Origin: Candidatus Oxydemutatoraceae bacterium
GTDB lineage: Bacteria > Pseudomonadota > Gammaproteobacteria > Poriferisulfidales > Oxydemutatoraceae
Length of the DNA: 64,000 nucleotides
Reading direction: 5' to 3'
Assembly (NCBI GenBank): GCA_965223735.1
Contig: OZ245010.1
Coordinates: forward strand, 42,018-106,017
Shown here piece by piece: positions 6,804-54,257 of this stretch. Under the pieces are notes generated by a model, which was not told the origin of the DNA, made no database searches, and saw only the letters and a list, made by a program, of their open reading frames with translations. Both the position numbers and the translations under genes were made by a program. How positions within the stretch are numbered: position 1 is the stretch's first letter; the number at the start of each line of letters is the position of its first letter.

Positions 6804-6856
6804 CGGGGAGTGCTTCTTGAGACAGTTTTGCTGGGTTGCGCCCAGGCGAATTATAA

Positions 6857-7511
6857 GGGAATTATATACTTAAATCTACAAAGACTTCAGTATCCATTTG
6901 ACACTTCACAGGCCGGCTAACGCCGCCACCTCCACGTCCAACTGTCCAATTCCCAAAGGCCAAGATATTCAACGCGGCATTGATATCCGCGTTGTCCCGA
7001 TGAGTGCACTTCACGCACTCGAAAACCGATTGCGACTTTCTGTTCGCCGCATCCATACGCCCGCAGACATGGCAGGTTCGGCTGGTGTAGGCTGGCGACA
7101 CCTTCACCACCGTCGCCTTGTACGACAGGCATTGCTCCGGCTTGTACCAGCCTGTCGCCAATATCCCACGGTTCAAACCGCTCTTTTTATAAAACTTCCT
7201 GTAATTTATCTCTATTGCTTTAAGGGGCGTCCTGACAATGGTGCATGAGTATTCATTCAGCCACGGATCCGTTTTGCGCAGGTTGGTAAAACGTTTATAC
7301 AGCGAGTATGCCCGGGGATCACATTGGCCGTAAAACACATACTTATCCCTCAATACACCGACAAAGTGATTCCACACATAACGGCAGGCGCTGGCCGTCG
7401 CCCACAATTTCCTCGCTTTCGCGCGGGTTTGAGGATGTATCCTGTATCGGATTGTTCTATGTGCTTTAGTCTGTTTAGCATGACTTTGTAGATTTTTTGT
7501 ATATGGTTCCC
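6857..7511 (-). mobile_element. tnpB: TIR-bounded tnpB element, internally deleted (655 bp)
   Basis: Imperfect ~29-bp TIRs (GGGAATTATATACTTAAATCTACAAAG / GGGAACCATATACAAAAAATCTACAAAG); flanks aattataa / agttataa; TnpB N-terminus (TIRYRIHP..CRYVWN) fused to the Zn-finger/RuvC-III end (CHVCG..CVKC..DNADINAALNIL). Confidence 0.88.
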
Positions 7512-7579
7512 AGTTATAACACCGGGGCCGGCGTCGGGTTTGCGGGCTGCGGTGCGGAAGGCCGACTGGCGCACGACGA

Positions 7580-8926
7580 TCACAGCAGGAAAATCGTAGC
7601 GAGTCCGAGAAACGCAAGGATGCCGATGACGTCGGTGATGGTGGTCAGCACGACGCCGCCGGCGAGTGCGGGGTCGATGCCGAGTTTTTTCAAAAGCACC
7701 GGGATCGACACACCGGCGAGTGCCGCGCACAGGAAATTAACGATCATTGCCGCGCCGATGATCAGGCCCATCGAAAAGTCGCCGAACCATACTATCGTGG
7801 TCAGCGCGACGATCAGCGCCCAGGTTGCGCCGTTGAGCAGTCCCACCGCCGATTCCTTGAGCAGCAGCAACAGCGAGTTGCCCGGCCCGATCTGGCCCGT
7901 TGCGATGCCGCGGATGACCAGCGTCAGCGTTTGTCCTCCGGCAATGCCACCCATGCTCGCGACCACCGGTATCAGCACCGCGAGCGCGATAATCTTTTCC
8001 AGAGTGCCCTGAAACAGGCTGATCACCCACGCCGCGAGAAACGCGGTGGCGAGGTTGACGCCGAGCCACAATGCGCGCCGCCGCGCCGAGGTGACCGCCG
8101 GGCTGAACAGGTTTTCGTCAAGAGGAAGGCCCGCGGCGCTGAATTCGGCCTGATGCGCTTCGCCGCGGATCACGTCAACCACGTCATCGACGGTGATGCG
8201 TCCGAGCAACTGCCTGTTCTTGTCCACCACCGGCGCCGACATCAGGTCGTGGGCCTCGAACAGCCGCGCGACTTCGGACGCAGGGGTATCGGCTTCAATG
8301 CTTTTGCCGTCGGTGTTCATCACCTTTGAGACCGGCGTGTCGGGGCTTCTGGTCAGCAACTGCGACAGTTGCAGGGTGCCGAGATAGCGGTTTGAATGGT
8401 CCACCACGATCAGCGTATTGGTGTGGGGGGGCAGTTCGCGTCGCAGGCGCAGGTAGCGCAGTACGATGTCGAGTGTGACGTTTCCCCTGACGGTGACGGC
8501 GTCGAGATCCATCAGGCCGCCAGCGCTGTCCTTGTCGTAGGACAGCACCTGCTCGAGGCGTTTGCGGTCCTGGGCTTCCATGCCGGCGAGCGCGCGGTCG
8601 CTGACAGTTGCCGGCAGGTCGGCGAACAGGTCGGCGAGTTTGTCCAGGTCGAGTCCCTCGAGCGCGGAGACGAGTTCTTCGGGGTCGGTGACGTCGATCA
8701 AGTCTTCGCGCACGCCCTCGCTGACTTCGTGCAGTATTTCGCCTTCGACCTCGGGGGTGAGCAGTCTCCACAGGATACGCCGCTGCGGGATCGGCAACGA
8801 TTCGAGCAGGTCGGCTATTTCCGCCGGGCGCAGGCCTTTCAGGTTCTGCTGGGTGCGCACCATCACGCCCGAGCGCAGCAGTTCGGTGAACCGCTTGAGC
8901 AGTATTTGTTGCTGATTCTCGGACAT
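7580..8926 (-). CDS. mgtE: Magnesium transporter MgtE
   Basis: MgtE N domain, CBS pair (DSAGGLM), TM region with MGGIAGGQT and DPALAGG. Confidence 0.95.
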   Translation of the reverse strand: MSENQQQILLKRFTELLRSGVMVRTQQNLKGLRPAEIADLLESLPIPQRRILWRLLTPEVEGEILHEVSEGVREDLIDVTDPEELVSALEGLDLDKLADLFADLPATVSDRALAGMEAQDRKRLEQVLSYDKDSAGGLMDLDAVTVRGNVTLDIVLRYLRLRRELPPHTNTLIVVDHSNRYLGTLQLSQLLTRSPDTPVSKVMNTDGKSIEADTPASEVARLFEAHDLMSAPVVDKNRQLLGRITVDDVVDVIRGEAHQAEFSAAGLPLDENLFSPAVTSARRRALWLGVNLATAFLAAWVISLFQGTLEKIIALAVLIPVVASMGGIAGGQTLTLVIRGIATGQIGPGNSLLLLLKESAVGLLNGATWALIVALTTIVWFGDFSMGLIIGAAMIVNFLCAALAGVSIPVLLKKLGIDPALAGGVVLTTITDVIGILAFLGLATIFLL

Positions 8927-17986: not shown

Positions 17987-18077
17987 GGCCGTTGAGGTGA
18001 CCTTTGTGTCTTGTTGAAGGTGCCGTCCCGCCGGTGTTCCTGTGGAGCGGCGATGGGATTTTACCCGCTTATTTTAA

Positions 18078-18200
18078 GGGAATTATATACAATAGTCCCT
18101 AAAGGACTTGTGTATCCGTTTGACGCTTCACAGGCCGGCTAACGCCGCCACCTCCACGTCCAACTGCCTCATTCCCGAAGGCCAGGATATTCAGTGCGGC
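18078..18200 (-). ncRNA. Putative omegaRNA (reRNA) scaffold overlapping the tnpB 3' end
   Basis: GGACG-TGGAG..CGGC-GTTA-GCCG..GAAG-CGTC pairing plus terminal stem AGTCC/GGACT; segment nearly identical in the 6857 copy; boundaries approximate. Confidence 0.55.
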
Positions 18201-19300
18201 ATTCATATCTGCATGATCCCGATGACCGCATTCGGTGCAGTGAAAACTGCGTCCCGCGCGGCTCTTCTTGTTTCTGTATGACCACAGACATTACATGTCT
18301 GACTGGTATAGGCCGGTGGCACCTTCACTACCGACGCCTTATACGACAGGCATTGCTCCATCTTATACCAGTCCTCGCCAGTATCTCGCGGTTCAGGCTG
18401 GCTTTTGCTTTAACATTCTTGCCGGGTTCGGCCTCTGTACCCTTCGCGCTCGCCGTCATCCCCTGCGTGTTCAGGTCTTCCATGTAAACCACATCATACT
18501 TGCGCGCTATCTCTCGTGAGACCTGATGACACCAATTAGTGCGCGTCTGCGCAATCTGCGCCGACGTCTGTTGCGTCCACTTGCGCGCGCGTGGATAACG
18601 ACCTGATGCTCTGCGCTTTTCCTTCCTGCTCCCACCATCACGCCTTGCCATCATCCGTTGATAACGACGCTTCCTTGCTTTCAACAAAGAGGTATCCGGC
18701 GCGTGATAGATCGTCCCGTCGGACAACGCTACTTGGCCGACGTTACGGTCTATACCGACCTCTTTAGGCACGTGCGGCCAAATCGCTTCCTGTTCCGTCT
18801 CATACACCAAATACGCATACCAGTCGCCGTGCTTGTTCTTGATGGTGCCGCTGACGGCCTTTGCGTCGGGATACGGGTTATGGCTGATGGGCCTCACCTG
18901 CCCGATTTTCGCCACATGCAGCCAGTCACCAATTCAGTCTAAATGCGCTGGCGACCAACGGGATACTGGCTGTTGCAGTGTAGCGCCCCTTGAACTTCGG
19001 CAGGCCGCCCTGCCCCTTCCAAAGCCCCTTGTAATTCGTCTCTATCGGCTTAAGCGACGCCCCGACTATGGCGTATGAGTATTCATTCAACCACGAATAC
19101 GCTTTGCGTAAGTTTGTAAAACGCTTATACAGCGAATATGCCCGCGGATCACACTTGCCATAGAACACATACTCATCTCTCAACACGCCCACGAGGTGGT
19201 TCCACACAAACCGGCAAGCGTCAGCGGTTCCCCATAACTTGCTCGCCTTCGCGCGCGTCGTCGGGTGCAAGCGGTAGCGAATTGTTCTATGCGTTTTCAT
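18100..19300 (-). pseudogene. tnpB: RNA-guided endonuclease TnpB, about 3 frameshifts
   Basis: HTH N-terminus, GLPKFK, RuvC-I VGIDRN, RuvC-II YMEDLN, Zn finger CNVCG..CTECG, RuvC-III HADMNAALNIL, spread over several frames. Confidence 0.9.
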
Positions 19301-19475
19301 CGGGGACTATTGTATATAATTCCCTGTTTTAACCGGGGTGTCTGGCAGGTTGCCTGACGGGGTTGTTTTTGATGCTCGATTGCAATGCCGCCCCGACGCC
19401 GGCGCGGGTCGGCATTTGTCACGGCAGGGGCCGGAGCGATGTCGTGCCGAGCATCGTATCCCGGACAGTGCCCGG

Positions 19476-42269: not shown

Positions 42270-42545
42270 CGCATGGTTCACGGCGACGGTGGTGAAGGCG
42301 CCGCCGTATGATGCGGAACAGAGAAGTCATGCCTGCGGGCATACGGCAGGAGACAGCCGCGGGGCGCAAAGCGGCCTTTGCCGTGTCCGATGCGGTGATC
42401 GGGACAATGCGGAGATGGATGCGGCGCGGAATATCTCGGCCTTCAGGAATGAGATTGCCGCGGGTGGCGGCGGCGACACCGGGGCCGGCGCAACGTGAAA
42501 TACGTGTGCGTCTCCTCTGTGGGGGATCAGGCATATAGCGCCTGC
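42270..42545 (+). pseudogene. tnpB: Heavily decayed tnpB 3' remnant of the same element family
   Basis: ggcgacggtggtgaagg shared with the 6857 copy; translates VVKAPP..HACGH..VRCGDRDNAEMDAARNISAF; boundaries approximate. Confidence 0.7.
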
Positions 42546-43808: not shown

Positions 43809-43834
43809 AACGGATGACGGAAATAATATACTTG

Positions 43835-43872
43835 GGGAATTATATACTTAAGCCTGCAAGGGCTTCTGTACC
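43835..43872 (-). mobile_element. Isolated right (3') end of the tnpB element family
   Basis: GGGAATTATATACTTAA identical to 6857-6873, followed by a similar hairpin-forming segment; cut off by the IS481-like element. Confidence 0.7.
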
Positions 43873-44311
43873 TGCATGACGCCACCCTATACGGGACACA
43901 AGAGGCAAATGTCGTGCCGGCATTGACAGGGTGTCGAGTCGCGGCTTGATTTGGCCTTTTGGCGTCAGGCGTGTCGGTAGTCAACCGCGCCGATCGTGCG
44001 CATACCGGGACAAGTCATGCAGCACGTTCAAGCCCCCGGTGCAGTAGGTCTGGCGTCGGTCGTGCACGGTGGAGCGGCTGACCTTGAATGCGTCAAGGGT
44101 GGCCCTGGAGTACAATCGGGGCCATGTTTGTCCCGGAATGTCAGGGTTTCGAGTTTCTGTTGGGCATTGGTTCGTATGGTCTTGTCTCCCATTTGGCAGA
44201 TAAAGAGGCGACTTTACAGAAACCTTTGGGGTGGAAGCCGATGTGCCGGTCCCCCGTATAACGGTTTCCTTTTTAATCAGGCCGGGGGCCGTATGTTTTT
44301 GGCCTCATACA
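43873..44311 (-). mobile_element. IS481-family deletion derivative (MITE-like, 439 bp)
   Basis: Left end TGTATGAGGCC..CATACGG at 44311 and degenerate inverted copy TGCATGACGCC..TATACGG at 43873; homologous to 8949-9430. Confidence 0.7.
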
Positions 44312-47274: not shown

Positions 47275-47351
47275 TGGCGCCCCGGGCAGGATTCGAACCT
47301 GCAACCTTCCCCTTAGGAGGGGGACGCGCTATCCAATTGTGCCACCGGGGC
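47275..47351 (-). tRNA. tRNA-Arg (CCT)
   Basis: Cloverleaf; anticodon arm TCCCC-CTCCTAA-GGGGA, GGTTCGAATCC T-loop, encoded CCA. Confidence 0.95.
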
Positions 47352-47484: not shown

Positions 47485-47571
47485 TGGTACCGAGGGTGGG
47501 ACTCGAACCCACACGGGTGTTACCCCACCGGATTTTGAGTCCGGCGCGTCTTCCGGTTCCGCCACCTCGGC
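47485..47571 (-). tRNA. tRNA-Leu (CAA)
   Basis: Anticodon arm CCGGA-CTCAAAA-TCCGG, long variable arm, GGTTCGAGTCC, encoded CCA. Confidence 0.95.
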
Positions 47572-53869: not shown

Positions 53870-54257
53870 ATGCCATCTTTGAACACCAGCAAGGTTGCCT
53901 TGCGGGGTGTGATGCAAGGCCATCCGAGATATGGCAGGGGAGTTTTTCCAGGTGATGGCGGTTCATACGCCGGCTCACATGGTTCTCAGCGCCGCTTCGT
54001 CGATCATTCAGCGAAAGAAAGAAGGTGTAAATGCGACGGCTCGCGTCAACGGCGTTGAGTCGGCGTGGGTGATTTTGCAACACGGGTATGACGGCGTTTG
54101 TCAACGGATGAGCGCCAAATACTTGCGCCGTTATATGGATGCGTTCTTGTTTTGCCTGAAAGGCGGCGACGCAGAACGTGACGTGGCAGGTCGGACGGGT
54201 TCATTATGCGACCGCCTCCGCGGCAGGCGTAGCGTGCGGCCGATGGCGGGGCGATGA
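53870..54257 (+). mobile_element. IS1595-family DDE transposase C-terminal remnant
   Basis: VDHSAKE then (frameshift) VNGVESAW..L..GY.G....MSAKYLRRYM..F, matching the IS1595 VNHS..HTN.IES.W..LKR..G.YH..S.KHL.RY signature. Confidence 0.78.

Follow-up and report, generated by a model that had tools for sequence, protein, structure and literature searches.

A probable TnpB guide-RNA scaffold overlapping the right terminal repeat of a non-autonomous IS1595-type cassette

The window analysed here, a 64,000-nt stretch of contig OZ245010.1 from the single-contig genome of a Candidatus Oxydemutatoraceae bacterium (1.846 Mb, 58.6% GC, 100% complete), contains a decayed TnpB-only transposable element (element A, window positions 18078-19324, minus strand) whose right end very probably encodes the scaffold of a TnpB guide RNA (omegaRNA or reRNA). 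To judge from sequence comparison, the candidate scaffold occupies 18078-18183 on the tnpB strand, is extended by a further stem-loop (P0) to ca. 18213, and lies in a non-autonomous cassette of IS1595 type. Such a cassette is an unusual home for a TnpB guide-RNA system in bacteria. TnpB guide RNAs are understood in IS200/IS605 and IS607 elements, which are excised without a scar and have a fixed target motif at the left end.

Element A is a 1247-bp non-autonomous element with 24-bp terminal inverted repeats (TIRs; right 18078-18101, left 19301-19324), bounded by the perfect 22-bp inverted repeat GGGAATTATATACAATAGTCCC, with perfect TIR cores at 18078 and 19324. Its sole gene, tnpB, is broken by stops and frameshifts, i.e., three-frame translation and a protein search recover it as pieces in different frames with internal TGA, TAA and TAG codons. 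The element is flanked by an 8-bp target-site duplication (TSD), whose right copy (TTAAAATA, 18070-18077) would supply the first 8 nt of a guide predicted to reach ca. 18058, and whose left copy (TTAAAACA, 19325-19332) matches it at 7/8 positions and adjoins a G at 19333, the -1 purine position considered below. Like the element, all these features are read on the minus strand. The 106-nt scaffold core (P1, P2, P3, P4 and a 3' tail) runs on that strand from 18183 to 18078, i.e., from GGCCUUCGGGAAUGAGGC to GGACGUGGAGGUGGCGGCGUUAGCCGGCCUGUGAAGCGUCAAACGGAUACACAAGUCCUUUAGGGACUAUUGUAUAUAAUUCCC, after which the flank begins with UUAAAAUAAGCGGG; it scored 117.1 bits (E 1.9e-32) against a covariance model built from a 36-copy alignment and applied at a threshold of E≤0.01. 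Five stems make up the proposed structure. P0 (UGCxG...CyGCA in the family, UGCAG...CCGCA with one A.C mismatch in the window copy, 18195-18213) lies in the RuvC-III coding remnant, in the codons for D-A-D-x-N-A-A. The P1 hairpin (GCCU/GGGC in the family, GCCU/AGGC here, 18166-18182) has a loop containing GGGAAU (18176-18171), the proposed 5' strand of a pseudoknot. P2 (GACG/CGUC) encloses P3 at 18122-18160, an assignment drawn from the covariation count; P3 follows the pattern AGGU..C-GGC/GCC-G-GCCU around a GUUA loop and reads AGGU..C GGC / GCCGGCCU in the window. The terminal hairpin P4 (18087-18115) combines outer pairs AUACA/UGUAU (AUAC/GUAU in the family) with an inner stem AGUCCU/GGGACU.

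The same right end recurs in the window. Element B (6857-7511, minus strand) is a 655-bp internal-deletion derivative with a TSD of its own (6849-6856 and 7512-7519, TTATAATT/TTATAACT, a 7/8 match) and a scaffold at 6857-6961 that scored 112.9 bits; over 129 nt it is 85% identical to the 18078 copy, and the terminal stem differs. Copy C (43835-43897, minus strand) is a truncated right end that holds P4 and the tail only (21.8 bits, E 1.3e-4). The 13-nt end motif GGGAATTATATAC, with at most two mismatches, occurs six times in the window against 0.27 expected, and none of 100 shuffles reached six. An initial annotation of this DNA, made from the letters alone, had described an omegaRNA-like fold here, and its description holds up well: the string GGACG-TGGAG..CGGC-GTTA-GCCG..GAAG-(C/T)GTC is found on the minus strand in both the 18078 and 6857 copies, and the three terminal stems that it listed (our P4) are AGTCC/GGACT (18108-18094), AAGTCT/AGATTT in the 6857 copy and AAGCC/GGCTT in the 43835 copy, each set within ATAC/GTAT and followed by ATAATTCCC and the flank. 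The fold sits, as it had been placed, at the tnpB 3' end and terminates exactly at the element end, and a covariance model, the means that had been suggested for examining all copies together, recovers the two window copies at the 117.1 and 112.9 bits given above.

The comparative tests of this structure cover 79-111 copies from the genome and its relatives. For P1, P2, P3 and the pseudoknot we used a MAFFT alignment of 79 distinct copies (A1), which leaves out L043, L044 and L048, lacking the 5' half, as well as one duplicate; nine BLAST hits in which no terminal motif could be recognised were also set aside, and three of them (L054, L056 and L058) were restored for the pseudoknot count. Across these helices 95.9% of cells are paired (88.7±0.4 in shuffled alignments), 109 cells are changed on both sides (31.9±5.6) and the covariation score reaches 0.274 (0.141), values attained by 0/500 shuffles in each case, while sliding the partners of the same stems by 1-3 columns gave scores of at most 0.107 and pairing of at most 54%. 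P1 is paired in 97.8% of cells, and its pairs 4-17 and 5-16 switch from CG to GC in 13 rows. Exchanges are also seen at pairs 37-87 (GC 54, AU 12, CG 4), 58-83 (AU 41, GC 27) and 59-64 (CG 48, GC 26), and G.U pairs are frequent, with U.G in 55/79 and 47/79 rows at two positions. At its variable position P0 forms a pair in 72/75 copies (GC 46, AU 14, GU 7, CG 5) against 54.6±2.1 in shuffles (0/2000), and all of these P0 changes are synonymous, falling in alanine codons. A check on eight column pairs along a tree yielded ten supported independent contrasts, of which 8.9 were complementary, none opposite and 1.1 unchanged (pooled sign test, p 0.004). Compensatory changes, which the initial annotation reported for the terminal stem, are seen for P1, P2, P3 and P4 across copies by the cell-based measures (0/500 shuffles); the strict measures, given further on, are not significant.

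P4 was assessed in 36 copies of 104-106 nt, aligned with MAFFT almost without gaps. Paired cells amount to 80.0% (73.4±1.0 when shuffled), double-changed cells to 30 (10.1±2.5) and the covariation score to 0.319 (0.184), each with 0/500 shuffles as high and with scores of at most 0.157 after sliding. Other subfamilies have P4 hairpins of very different lengths and sequences, yet these still fold (mean z -3.1 over 79 copies, 57/79 below -2), and in 64/79 copies the P4 segment is more stable on the sense strand than as its reverse complement, as expected if G.U pairs matter. The hairpin is confined to the right end: the 40 bases inside that end have a mean z of -2.88, compared with 0.07 for the corresponding bases of the left end, or -0.04 when these are read from the opposite strand (n=30 elements), and no hairpin adjoins the left TIR of element A, so the fold is not a property of the repeat itself.

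Counted inward from the right end, bases 1-6 are AUUCCC (18083-18078 in element A), bases 10-14 the 3' arm of outer P4 and bases 17-22 the 3' arm of inner P4, while the P4 loop and 5' arm lie outside the 24-bp repeat. Because repeat positions 14-24 vary between subfamilies, any variant has to be matched in three places, namely in both repeats (left and right) and in the internal arm of P4. This layout accords with the earlier suggestion that the TIR doubles as transposase end and RNA scaffold: the right repeat, containing the P4 3' arms and the last six nucleotides, would at once bind the transposase and furnish the 3' half of the guide-RNA scaffold. The tail, AUAAUUCCC, offers a further possible contact, as its last six bases (AUUCCC) are complementary to the GGGAAU of the P1 loop. 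In the two strands 643/666 cells can pair, and of 51 changed cells 28 keep pairing (three by double change) and 23 break it. The putative pseudoknot is plausible by analogy with the one of ISXfa1.

The coding frame and the scaffold are superimposed. The tnpB frame runs through the whole scaffold, and of 23 open reading frames (ORFs) exceeding 330 aa, 17 terminate at the TAA within AUAUAAUUCCC, which lies 5 nt from the end of the element; the scaffold length is a multiple of three in 84/108 copies. Changes in P3 alter the encoded residues (S/T/G, G/E/D/N) and its pairs are kept. Miniature inverted-repeat transposable elements (MITEs) of 168-262 bp have no tnpB and retain the two repeats together with the complete scaffold, e.g., those at genome 1242395-1242575, 1055857-1056024 and 195269-195530 (L047, L058 and L051, respectively); in one MITE subfamily P0 is replaced by an unrelated hairpin, ACAGG...CCUGU. 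The covariance model finds 35 scaffolds in the genome at E≤0.01, against two intact tnpB genes, and four when applied to the window. Conservation ends at ...AATTCCC and the flanks beyond are unique: searches for guides directed at other sites in the genome found that 16-nt flanks match their own locus only, apart from chance-level matches at up to two mismatches.

The cassettes behave as a mobile family with defined ends. Among the copies elsewhere in the genome, those at 1335482, 1597220, 634614 and 276301 are flanked by perfect 8-bp TSDs (CTCAAAAA, TATATTAT, TTTATTTA and TTATCTTT). In 80 related loci from a species collection both ends were found in 55 (the remaining 25 have no automatically detected ends), and of these 55, 25 have a perfect 8-bp TSD and seven a TSD with one mismatch. 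The repeats start with GGG and the targets duplicated are AT-rich. Identity between left and right ends is 0.77-1.00 at positions 1-24 and ca. 0.25 from position 26 (n=30 elements), and this drop sets the inverted repeat at 24 bp. Membership in IS200/IS605 (the IS1341 group) was considered and rejected on the 24-bp TIRs, the 8-bp TSDs, the failure to find a Y1 transposase in the 100%-complete genome and the presence of a hairpin at the right end only; IS607 was likewise rejected, as TIR and TSD are present; no search aimed at its serine recombinase was made. Elements of IS200/IS605 and IS607 are described as having neither inverted repeats nor target duplications (PMC13565253).

Several observations point to IS1595 instead. 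The genome encodes IS1595-family transposases (PF12762, E 2e-40, with the IS1595 zinc ribbon Zn-ribbon_IS1595; NF033547, 188.7 bits), and a 2.5-kb IS1595 element at genome 784320-786868, which carries a DNA methyltransferase passenger, has a 23-bp repeat (GGGGACTATATACGATGTTGCCC) and is flanked by an 8-bp duplication (CATTTTTT). A transposase-bearing element of the same genome shares 11 of 13 outer bases with the cassette ends, and in relatives, transposase-only IS1595 elements of 1282-1410 bp have 8-bp TSDs and TIRs of GGGAATTATATACTTA, GGGAATTATGTATTTA or GGGAACTATATAC..., i.e., the same ends as the TnpB cassettes. Scaffold DNA occurs in 16/41 relatives, all among the 26/41 with an IS1595 DDE domain, the domain also being present in 10/25 of the others; relatives do not count as independent samples. 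According to PMC8101967, 8-bp duplications usually flank IS1595 members, and the eukaryotic Merlin elements related to them have GG-terminal repeats. The cassettes thus have the TIRs beginning GG and the 8-bp TSD of IS1595, and lack a transposase gene of their own: a tblastn search within 4 kb found no DDE_Tnp_IS1595 transposase between the cassette repeats in any of 80 tnpB loci, and six of the 80 have one outside the element. Since transposase-bearing IS1595 elements carry the same repeat ends, we infer that the cassette belongs to the IS1595 type as a non-autonomous element and depends for its movement on IS1595 DDE transposases supplied in trans. The initial annotation had not named the owner of the repeat; it would then be an IS1595-family DDE enzyme acting in trans and not a TnpA of IS200/IS605 or IS607.

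Two further features of the resident IS1595 elements were noted. Those at genome 784320-786868 (L001:121-2669) and 1545187-1547732 (L002) both carry an N6/N4 DNA methyltransferase passenger between perfect 8-bp duplications, and L001 additionally encodes a 210-aa ORF without a Pfam match. For another transposase copy, at genome 1244038-1244907, an inverted-repeat search (L099-L101) did not reveal clear ends.

In the genome as a whole, BLAST finds five near-full-length copies and many right-end fragments, and only two tnpB genes are uninterrupted (276309-277511 and 1335497-1336705). An intact relative (L005, 401 aa) scores 175.7 bits against the NCBIfam model guided_TnpB (NF040570, cut-off 100), exceeds the cut-offs of the Pfam families HTH_OrfB_IS605 and Cas12f1-like_TNB, and reaches 27.6 bits against OrfB_IS605, below the 30.5-bit cut-off. 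Over residues 7-370 it aligns to ISDra2 TnpB (8bf8/8h1j, E 4e-12), and the motifs GIDRN, EDLN and HADVN are present. With this family score and with the catalytic D, E and D motifs that full-length copies retain, the intact genome copies qualify as TnpB; the broken window copies do not. Among solved structures, the RuvC half of the L005 protein (residues 208-369) matches 9j09 best (Cas12n according to the paper listing; E 3e-19), ahead of ISDra2 TnpB, and it shares with 9j09 a long MTASxKGT...PGxNVxxKxxLNR insert. In element B, TnpB residues 2-98 are joined to 296-401; its ORF (6862-7617, minus strand, 251 aa) has an in-frame deletion that leaves the N-terminus and the zinc-finger/RuvC-III end without RuvC-I and RuvC-II, and may be a decay product or a mini-protein. 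The TnpB protein family comprises 324 confirmed stretches in the species collection, from records titled Gammaproteobacteria, Candidatus Porisulfidus, Candidatus Oxydemutator, Arenicellales, Thiotrichales, Chromatiales and one Opitutales metagenome-assembled genome (MAG). The Opitutales MAG belongs to another phylum than the other, gammaproteobacterial records, its TnpBs (L125 and L126) are 58-59% identical to the present one, both loci lack automatically detected ends, and the occurrence could stem from transfer or from a binning error.

The flanks of the elements hold an oriented signal. From L103-L182, L010-L098 and the copies of the own genome we rebuilt 50 distinct empty sites with a TSD of at most one mismatch, and in 49/50 a purine immediately precedes the duplicated 8-mer on the side upstream of tnpB (base counts G 32, A 17, T 1), compared with a pyrimidine in 19/50 at the mirror position +9 (Fisher p 2e-11); position -3 is an A in 26/50. 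As a control we took 40 transposase loci, 24 with TIR and TSD (16 without), including 13 transposase-only elements with the same repeat type. In this small control the -1 purine is present in 7/13 (4/13 when read the other way), which differs from 49/50 at p 1.6e-4. A transposase working on two equal ends is blind to orientation, and an orientation-specific bias in the flank therefore points to the oriented cargo. As indirect evidence, the -1 purine looks like the signature of a target-adjacent motif (TAM), on the condition that TnpB cuts the empty site with a guide beginning at the first base past the repeat. It is also the arrangement into which the guides predicted in the initial annotation, running leftward from 18077 and 6856, fit, i.e., an orientation-specific purine lies one base before the duplicated target and the predicted guides start with the 8-bp target duplication.

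Taken together, we consider that the transcript would comprise a scaffold of ca. 135 nt, with P0 in RuvC-III coding sequence, P1, stacked P2/P3 with conserved internal loops, a variable P4 and the tail, and a guide taken from the flank beyond the right repeat, i.e., the 8-bp target duplication and the bases downstream of it. Transcription, processing, TnpB binding and a guide boundary at the repeat end are all presumed in this model. More tentatively, and with somewhat less than even confidence, we postulate that a bacterial TnpB and its guide RNA have been rebuilt to suit a cut-and-paste DDE transposon of IS1595 type, with the repeat as 3' scaffold, the variable TSD as guide start, a purine-ending TAM and homing as the outcome. 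TnpB would cleave the empty site (purine-ending motif, target duplication and flank), the element would be copied back by recombination, and insertions that happen to land behind a purine-ending motif would persist. MITEs with repeats and scaffold only might in this way borrow the transposase for movement and TnpB for retention. The window copies themselves are relics.

A number of results speak against a functional guide RNA. On the two measures that the counting tool rates least prone to false alarms, P1, P2, P3 and the pseudoknot do not stand out significantly (pairs with a double change 9 vs 7.3, 91/500 shuffles; further pair types 33 vs 29.5, 12/500), and neither does P4 (66/500 and 26/500). 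The structure was derived from the sequences on which it was also tested and the copies are related, both of which inflate the shuffle tests; in the tree check, built on 85 non-helix columns, each base pair alone contributes 1-2 well-supported contrasts, and significance is reached only when the pairs are pooled. Taken singly, the window copy folds no better than its shuffles do (z -0.80, 46/200 as good; antisense z -1.55), and hence the case rests on comparison. For the pseudoknot, the counts of kept and broken pairs are about those expected from transitions alone, and both strands are otherwise constrained, by the repeat end and by Phe-Gly-Asn codons. The conserved loops coincide with conserved residues (G-N, GRGG/G-R-G, KRQ), so part of the conservation could be at the protein level. 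No Rfam match was obtained, either for the whole window at gathering thresholds apart from two tRNAs or for 18040-18300 at E≤10; no sigma-70-like promoter was seen in element A or in one MITE; and a search of sequencing runs found the stretch in three rows from two studies, all contigs, and in no RNA run. Lastly, tnpB is broken in both window copies, and any RNAs from the window would consequently depend on TnpB supplied by the two intact genes that lie elsewhere in the genome.

Some of these points are what one would expect if there were no functional RNA, the conservation reflecting the tnpB C-terminal coding sequence and a transposase-binding repeat with the pairings as by-products: the ORF spans the whole region, the conserved unpaired stretches encode the invariant residues G-N, G-R-G and K-R-Q, and the strict covariation measures and the single-sequence z are unremarkable. 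Such an explanation is nevertheless very unlikely, for it leaves unexplained why the scaffold is kept in MITEs and fragments without a tnpB ORF (35 scaffolds vs two intact genes), why P3 pairs survive residue changes and P0 covaries at synonymous sites, and why the hairpin forms at the right end only, with G.U pairs favouring one strand, when the same transposase binds both ends. Another idea is that the hairpins are DNA-level transposition signals, either like the subterminal hairpins of IS200/IS605 Y1 transposases or as a right-end-specific site for a transposase cofactor. The usual company of tnpB lends this some appeal, as it mostly travels with IS200/IS605, whose ends fold as DNA hairpins (PMC13565253), but the 100%-complete genome yielded no Y1 transposase, the 24-bp repeats and 8-bp duplications are foreign to both IS200/IS605 and IS607, the left end lacks a hairpin and many of the pairs are G.U; we regard it as exceedingly improbable. 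Hardly any weight can be given either to P4 as an intrinsic terminator of tnpB. A pattern scan does list 18108-18094 and the tail as terminator-like, yet it gave two sites against 1.5±1.6 in shuffles, i.e., chance level, the tail AUUGUAUAUAAUUCCC has no U-run, and 17/23 long ORFs have their stop codon beyond the hairpin, so that a terminator at P4 would cut the message before its stop. A last alternative accepts a TnpB-bound RNA and disputes homing, the RNA serving a domesticated TnpB (an RNA-guided regulator like TldR), addiction or defence. It is very unlikely, if a little less so than the foregoing. In its favour, restorative homing is thought to be of little benefit to cut-and-paste DDE elements (PMC13565253) and most copies are orphans; against it, the catalytic D, E and D are intact in full-length copies, the 16-nt flanks match nothing beyond their own locus above chance level, the elements are mobile with perfect duplications and the -1 purine accords with TnpB cleaving empty sites.

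With a TnpB guide-RNA scaffold as the preferred reading, its nearest analogue is the omegaRNA of ISDra2-type IS200/IS605 elements, which similarly overlaps the tnpB 3' end, has several stems over ca. 130 nt, stops where the transposon stops on the right and draws its guide from the adjoining flank; the IS200/605 scaffold is described as ending at the transposon boundary (PMC10711439). The host element here differs in having inverted repeats, 8-bp duplications and a DDE enzyme rather than a Y1 TnpA; it has no fixed target motif at the left end, the first eight guide bases would be the duplicated target, and the ORF covers the whole scaffold. The IS607 TnpB reRNA of ISXfa1 has a pseudoknot at about -130/-3, tested by U-130A/A-3U rescue in the account of PMC10711439, and the likeness is that a 6-nt loop ca. 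95 nt upstream is here complementary to the last scaffold bases, a matter of complementarity only. IS607 elements differ in using a serine recombinase, in lacking TIR and TSD and in taking a right-flank nucleotide into the scaffold. Fanzor reRNAs of eukaryotic and viral TIR/TSD transposons (e.g., SfAV Fanzor1) resemble the present case in that the scaffold overlaps a transposase-recognised TIR (PMC10711439), but in those elements a short fixed TSD is incorporated into the scaffold or else belongs to the TAM (PMC10711439, PMC13565253). With its 8 bp and its variable sequence, the TSD here could serve as nothing but guide, and the TAM-like signal precedes it.

TnpB in DDE transposons has been known in general terms since 2023. 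The DDE-1 to DDE-6 branches and the solo TnpBs of Altae-Tran et al. 2023 likewise have TnpB between inverted terminal repeats, with a 3' end within 250 bp of the element end in the DDE-associated TnpBs and solo copies presumed to be moved in trans (PMC10691335). The main text of that paper names only IS630 and mentions IS1595 zero times, its supplementary family list may include IS1595, and the portions of its text considered here give no RNA structure for the DDE-1 to DDE-6 TnpBs. For DDE-associated OMEGA systems, a 2026 review lists ISL2, IS630 and IS1031, calling the association rare in prokaryotes and questioning its benefit (PMC13565253). Our literature search found no paper on an IS1595-borne TnpB or its RNA, i.e., this version was not found in print, and the 2023 supplements may bear on the point. 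Compared with the IS1595 family as such, the cassettes have the ends starting GG(G), the 8-bp TSD and a partner transposase with Zn-ribbon_IS1595 and DDE_Tnp_IS1595 domains, and differ in lacking a transposase gene and in carrying a passenger tnpB with a guide RNA that would occupy the right repeat. The closest group within the family we take to be the ISNwi1-like subgroup of IS1595, with ends 'ggnnatTAT'.

Given 35 scaffolds in one genome and 324 related stretches, the family is a concrete and abundant case for the question of whether an OMEGA-DDE pairing pays. It brings with it a proposed structure for the whole RNA, guide-only MITEs and a -1 purine that predicts the TAM, and it places one 24-bp sequence under a three-way constraint as putative transposase site, RNA stem and reading frame. 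If true, the proposal would give the Fanzors of TIR transposons a prokaryotic counterpart, and the family would be a natural test case for whether DDE elements benefit from RNA-guided homing; were the nuclease active, a one-base TAM would be of interest for TnpB genome editing.

A few other features of the window touch the same families. Copy C directly adjoins a second repeat-like end, GGAAATAATATAC, so that two ends lie side by side in tandem at 43819-43897. On the plus strand, a divergent, second-type scaffold (42438-42541, 37.6 bits) with a different terminal sequence follows what is left of a TnpB C-terminus (40% identical to residues 317-383), the two together spanning 42277-42541. A weak IS1595 DDE domain match at 54012-54152 (plus strand, E 1.7e-5, below cut-off) suggests a transposase remnant. 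Finally, two tRNA genes on the minus strand (47278-47351 and 47488-47571) are the sole Rfam matches in the window.

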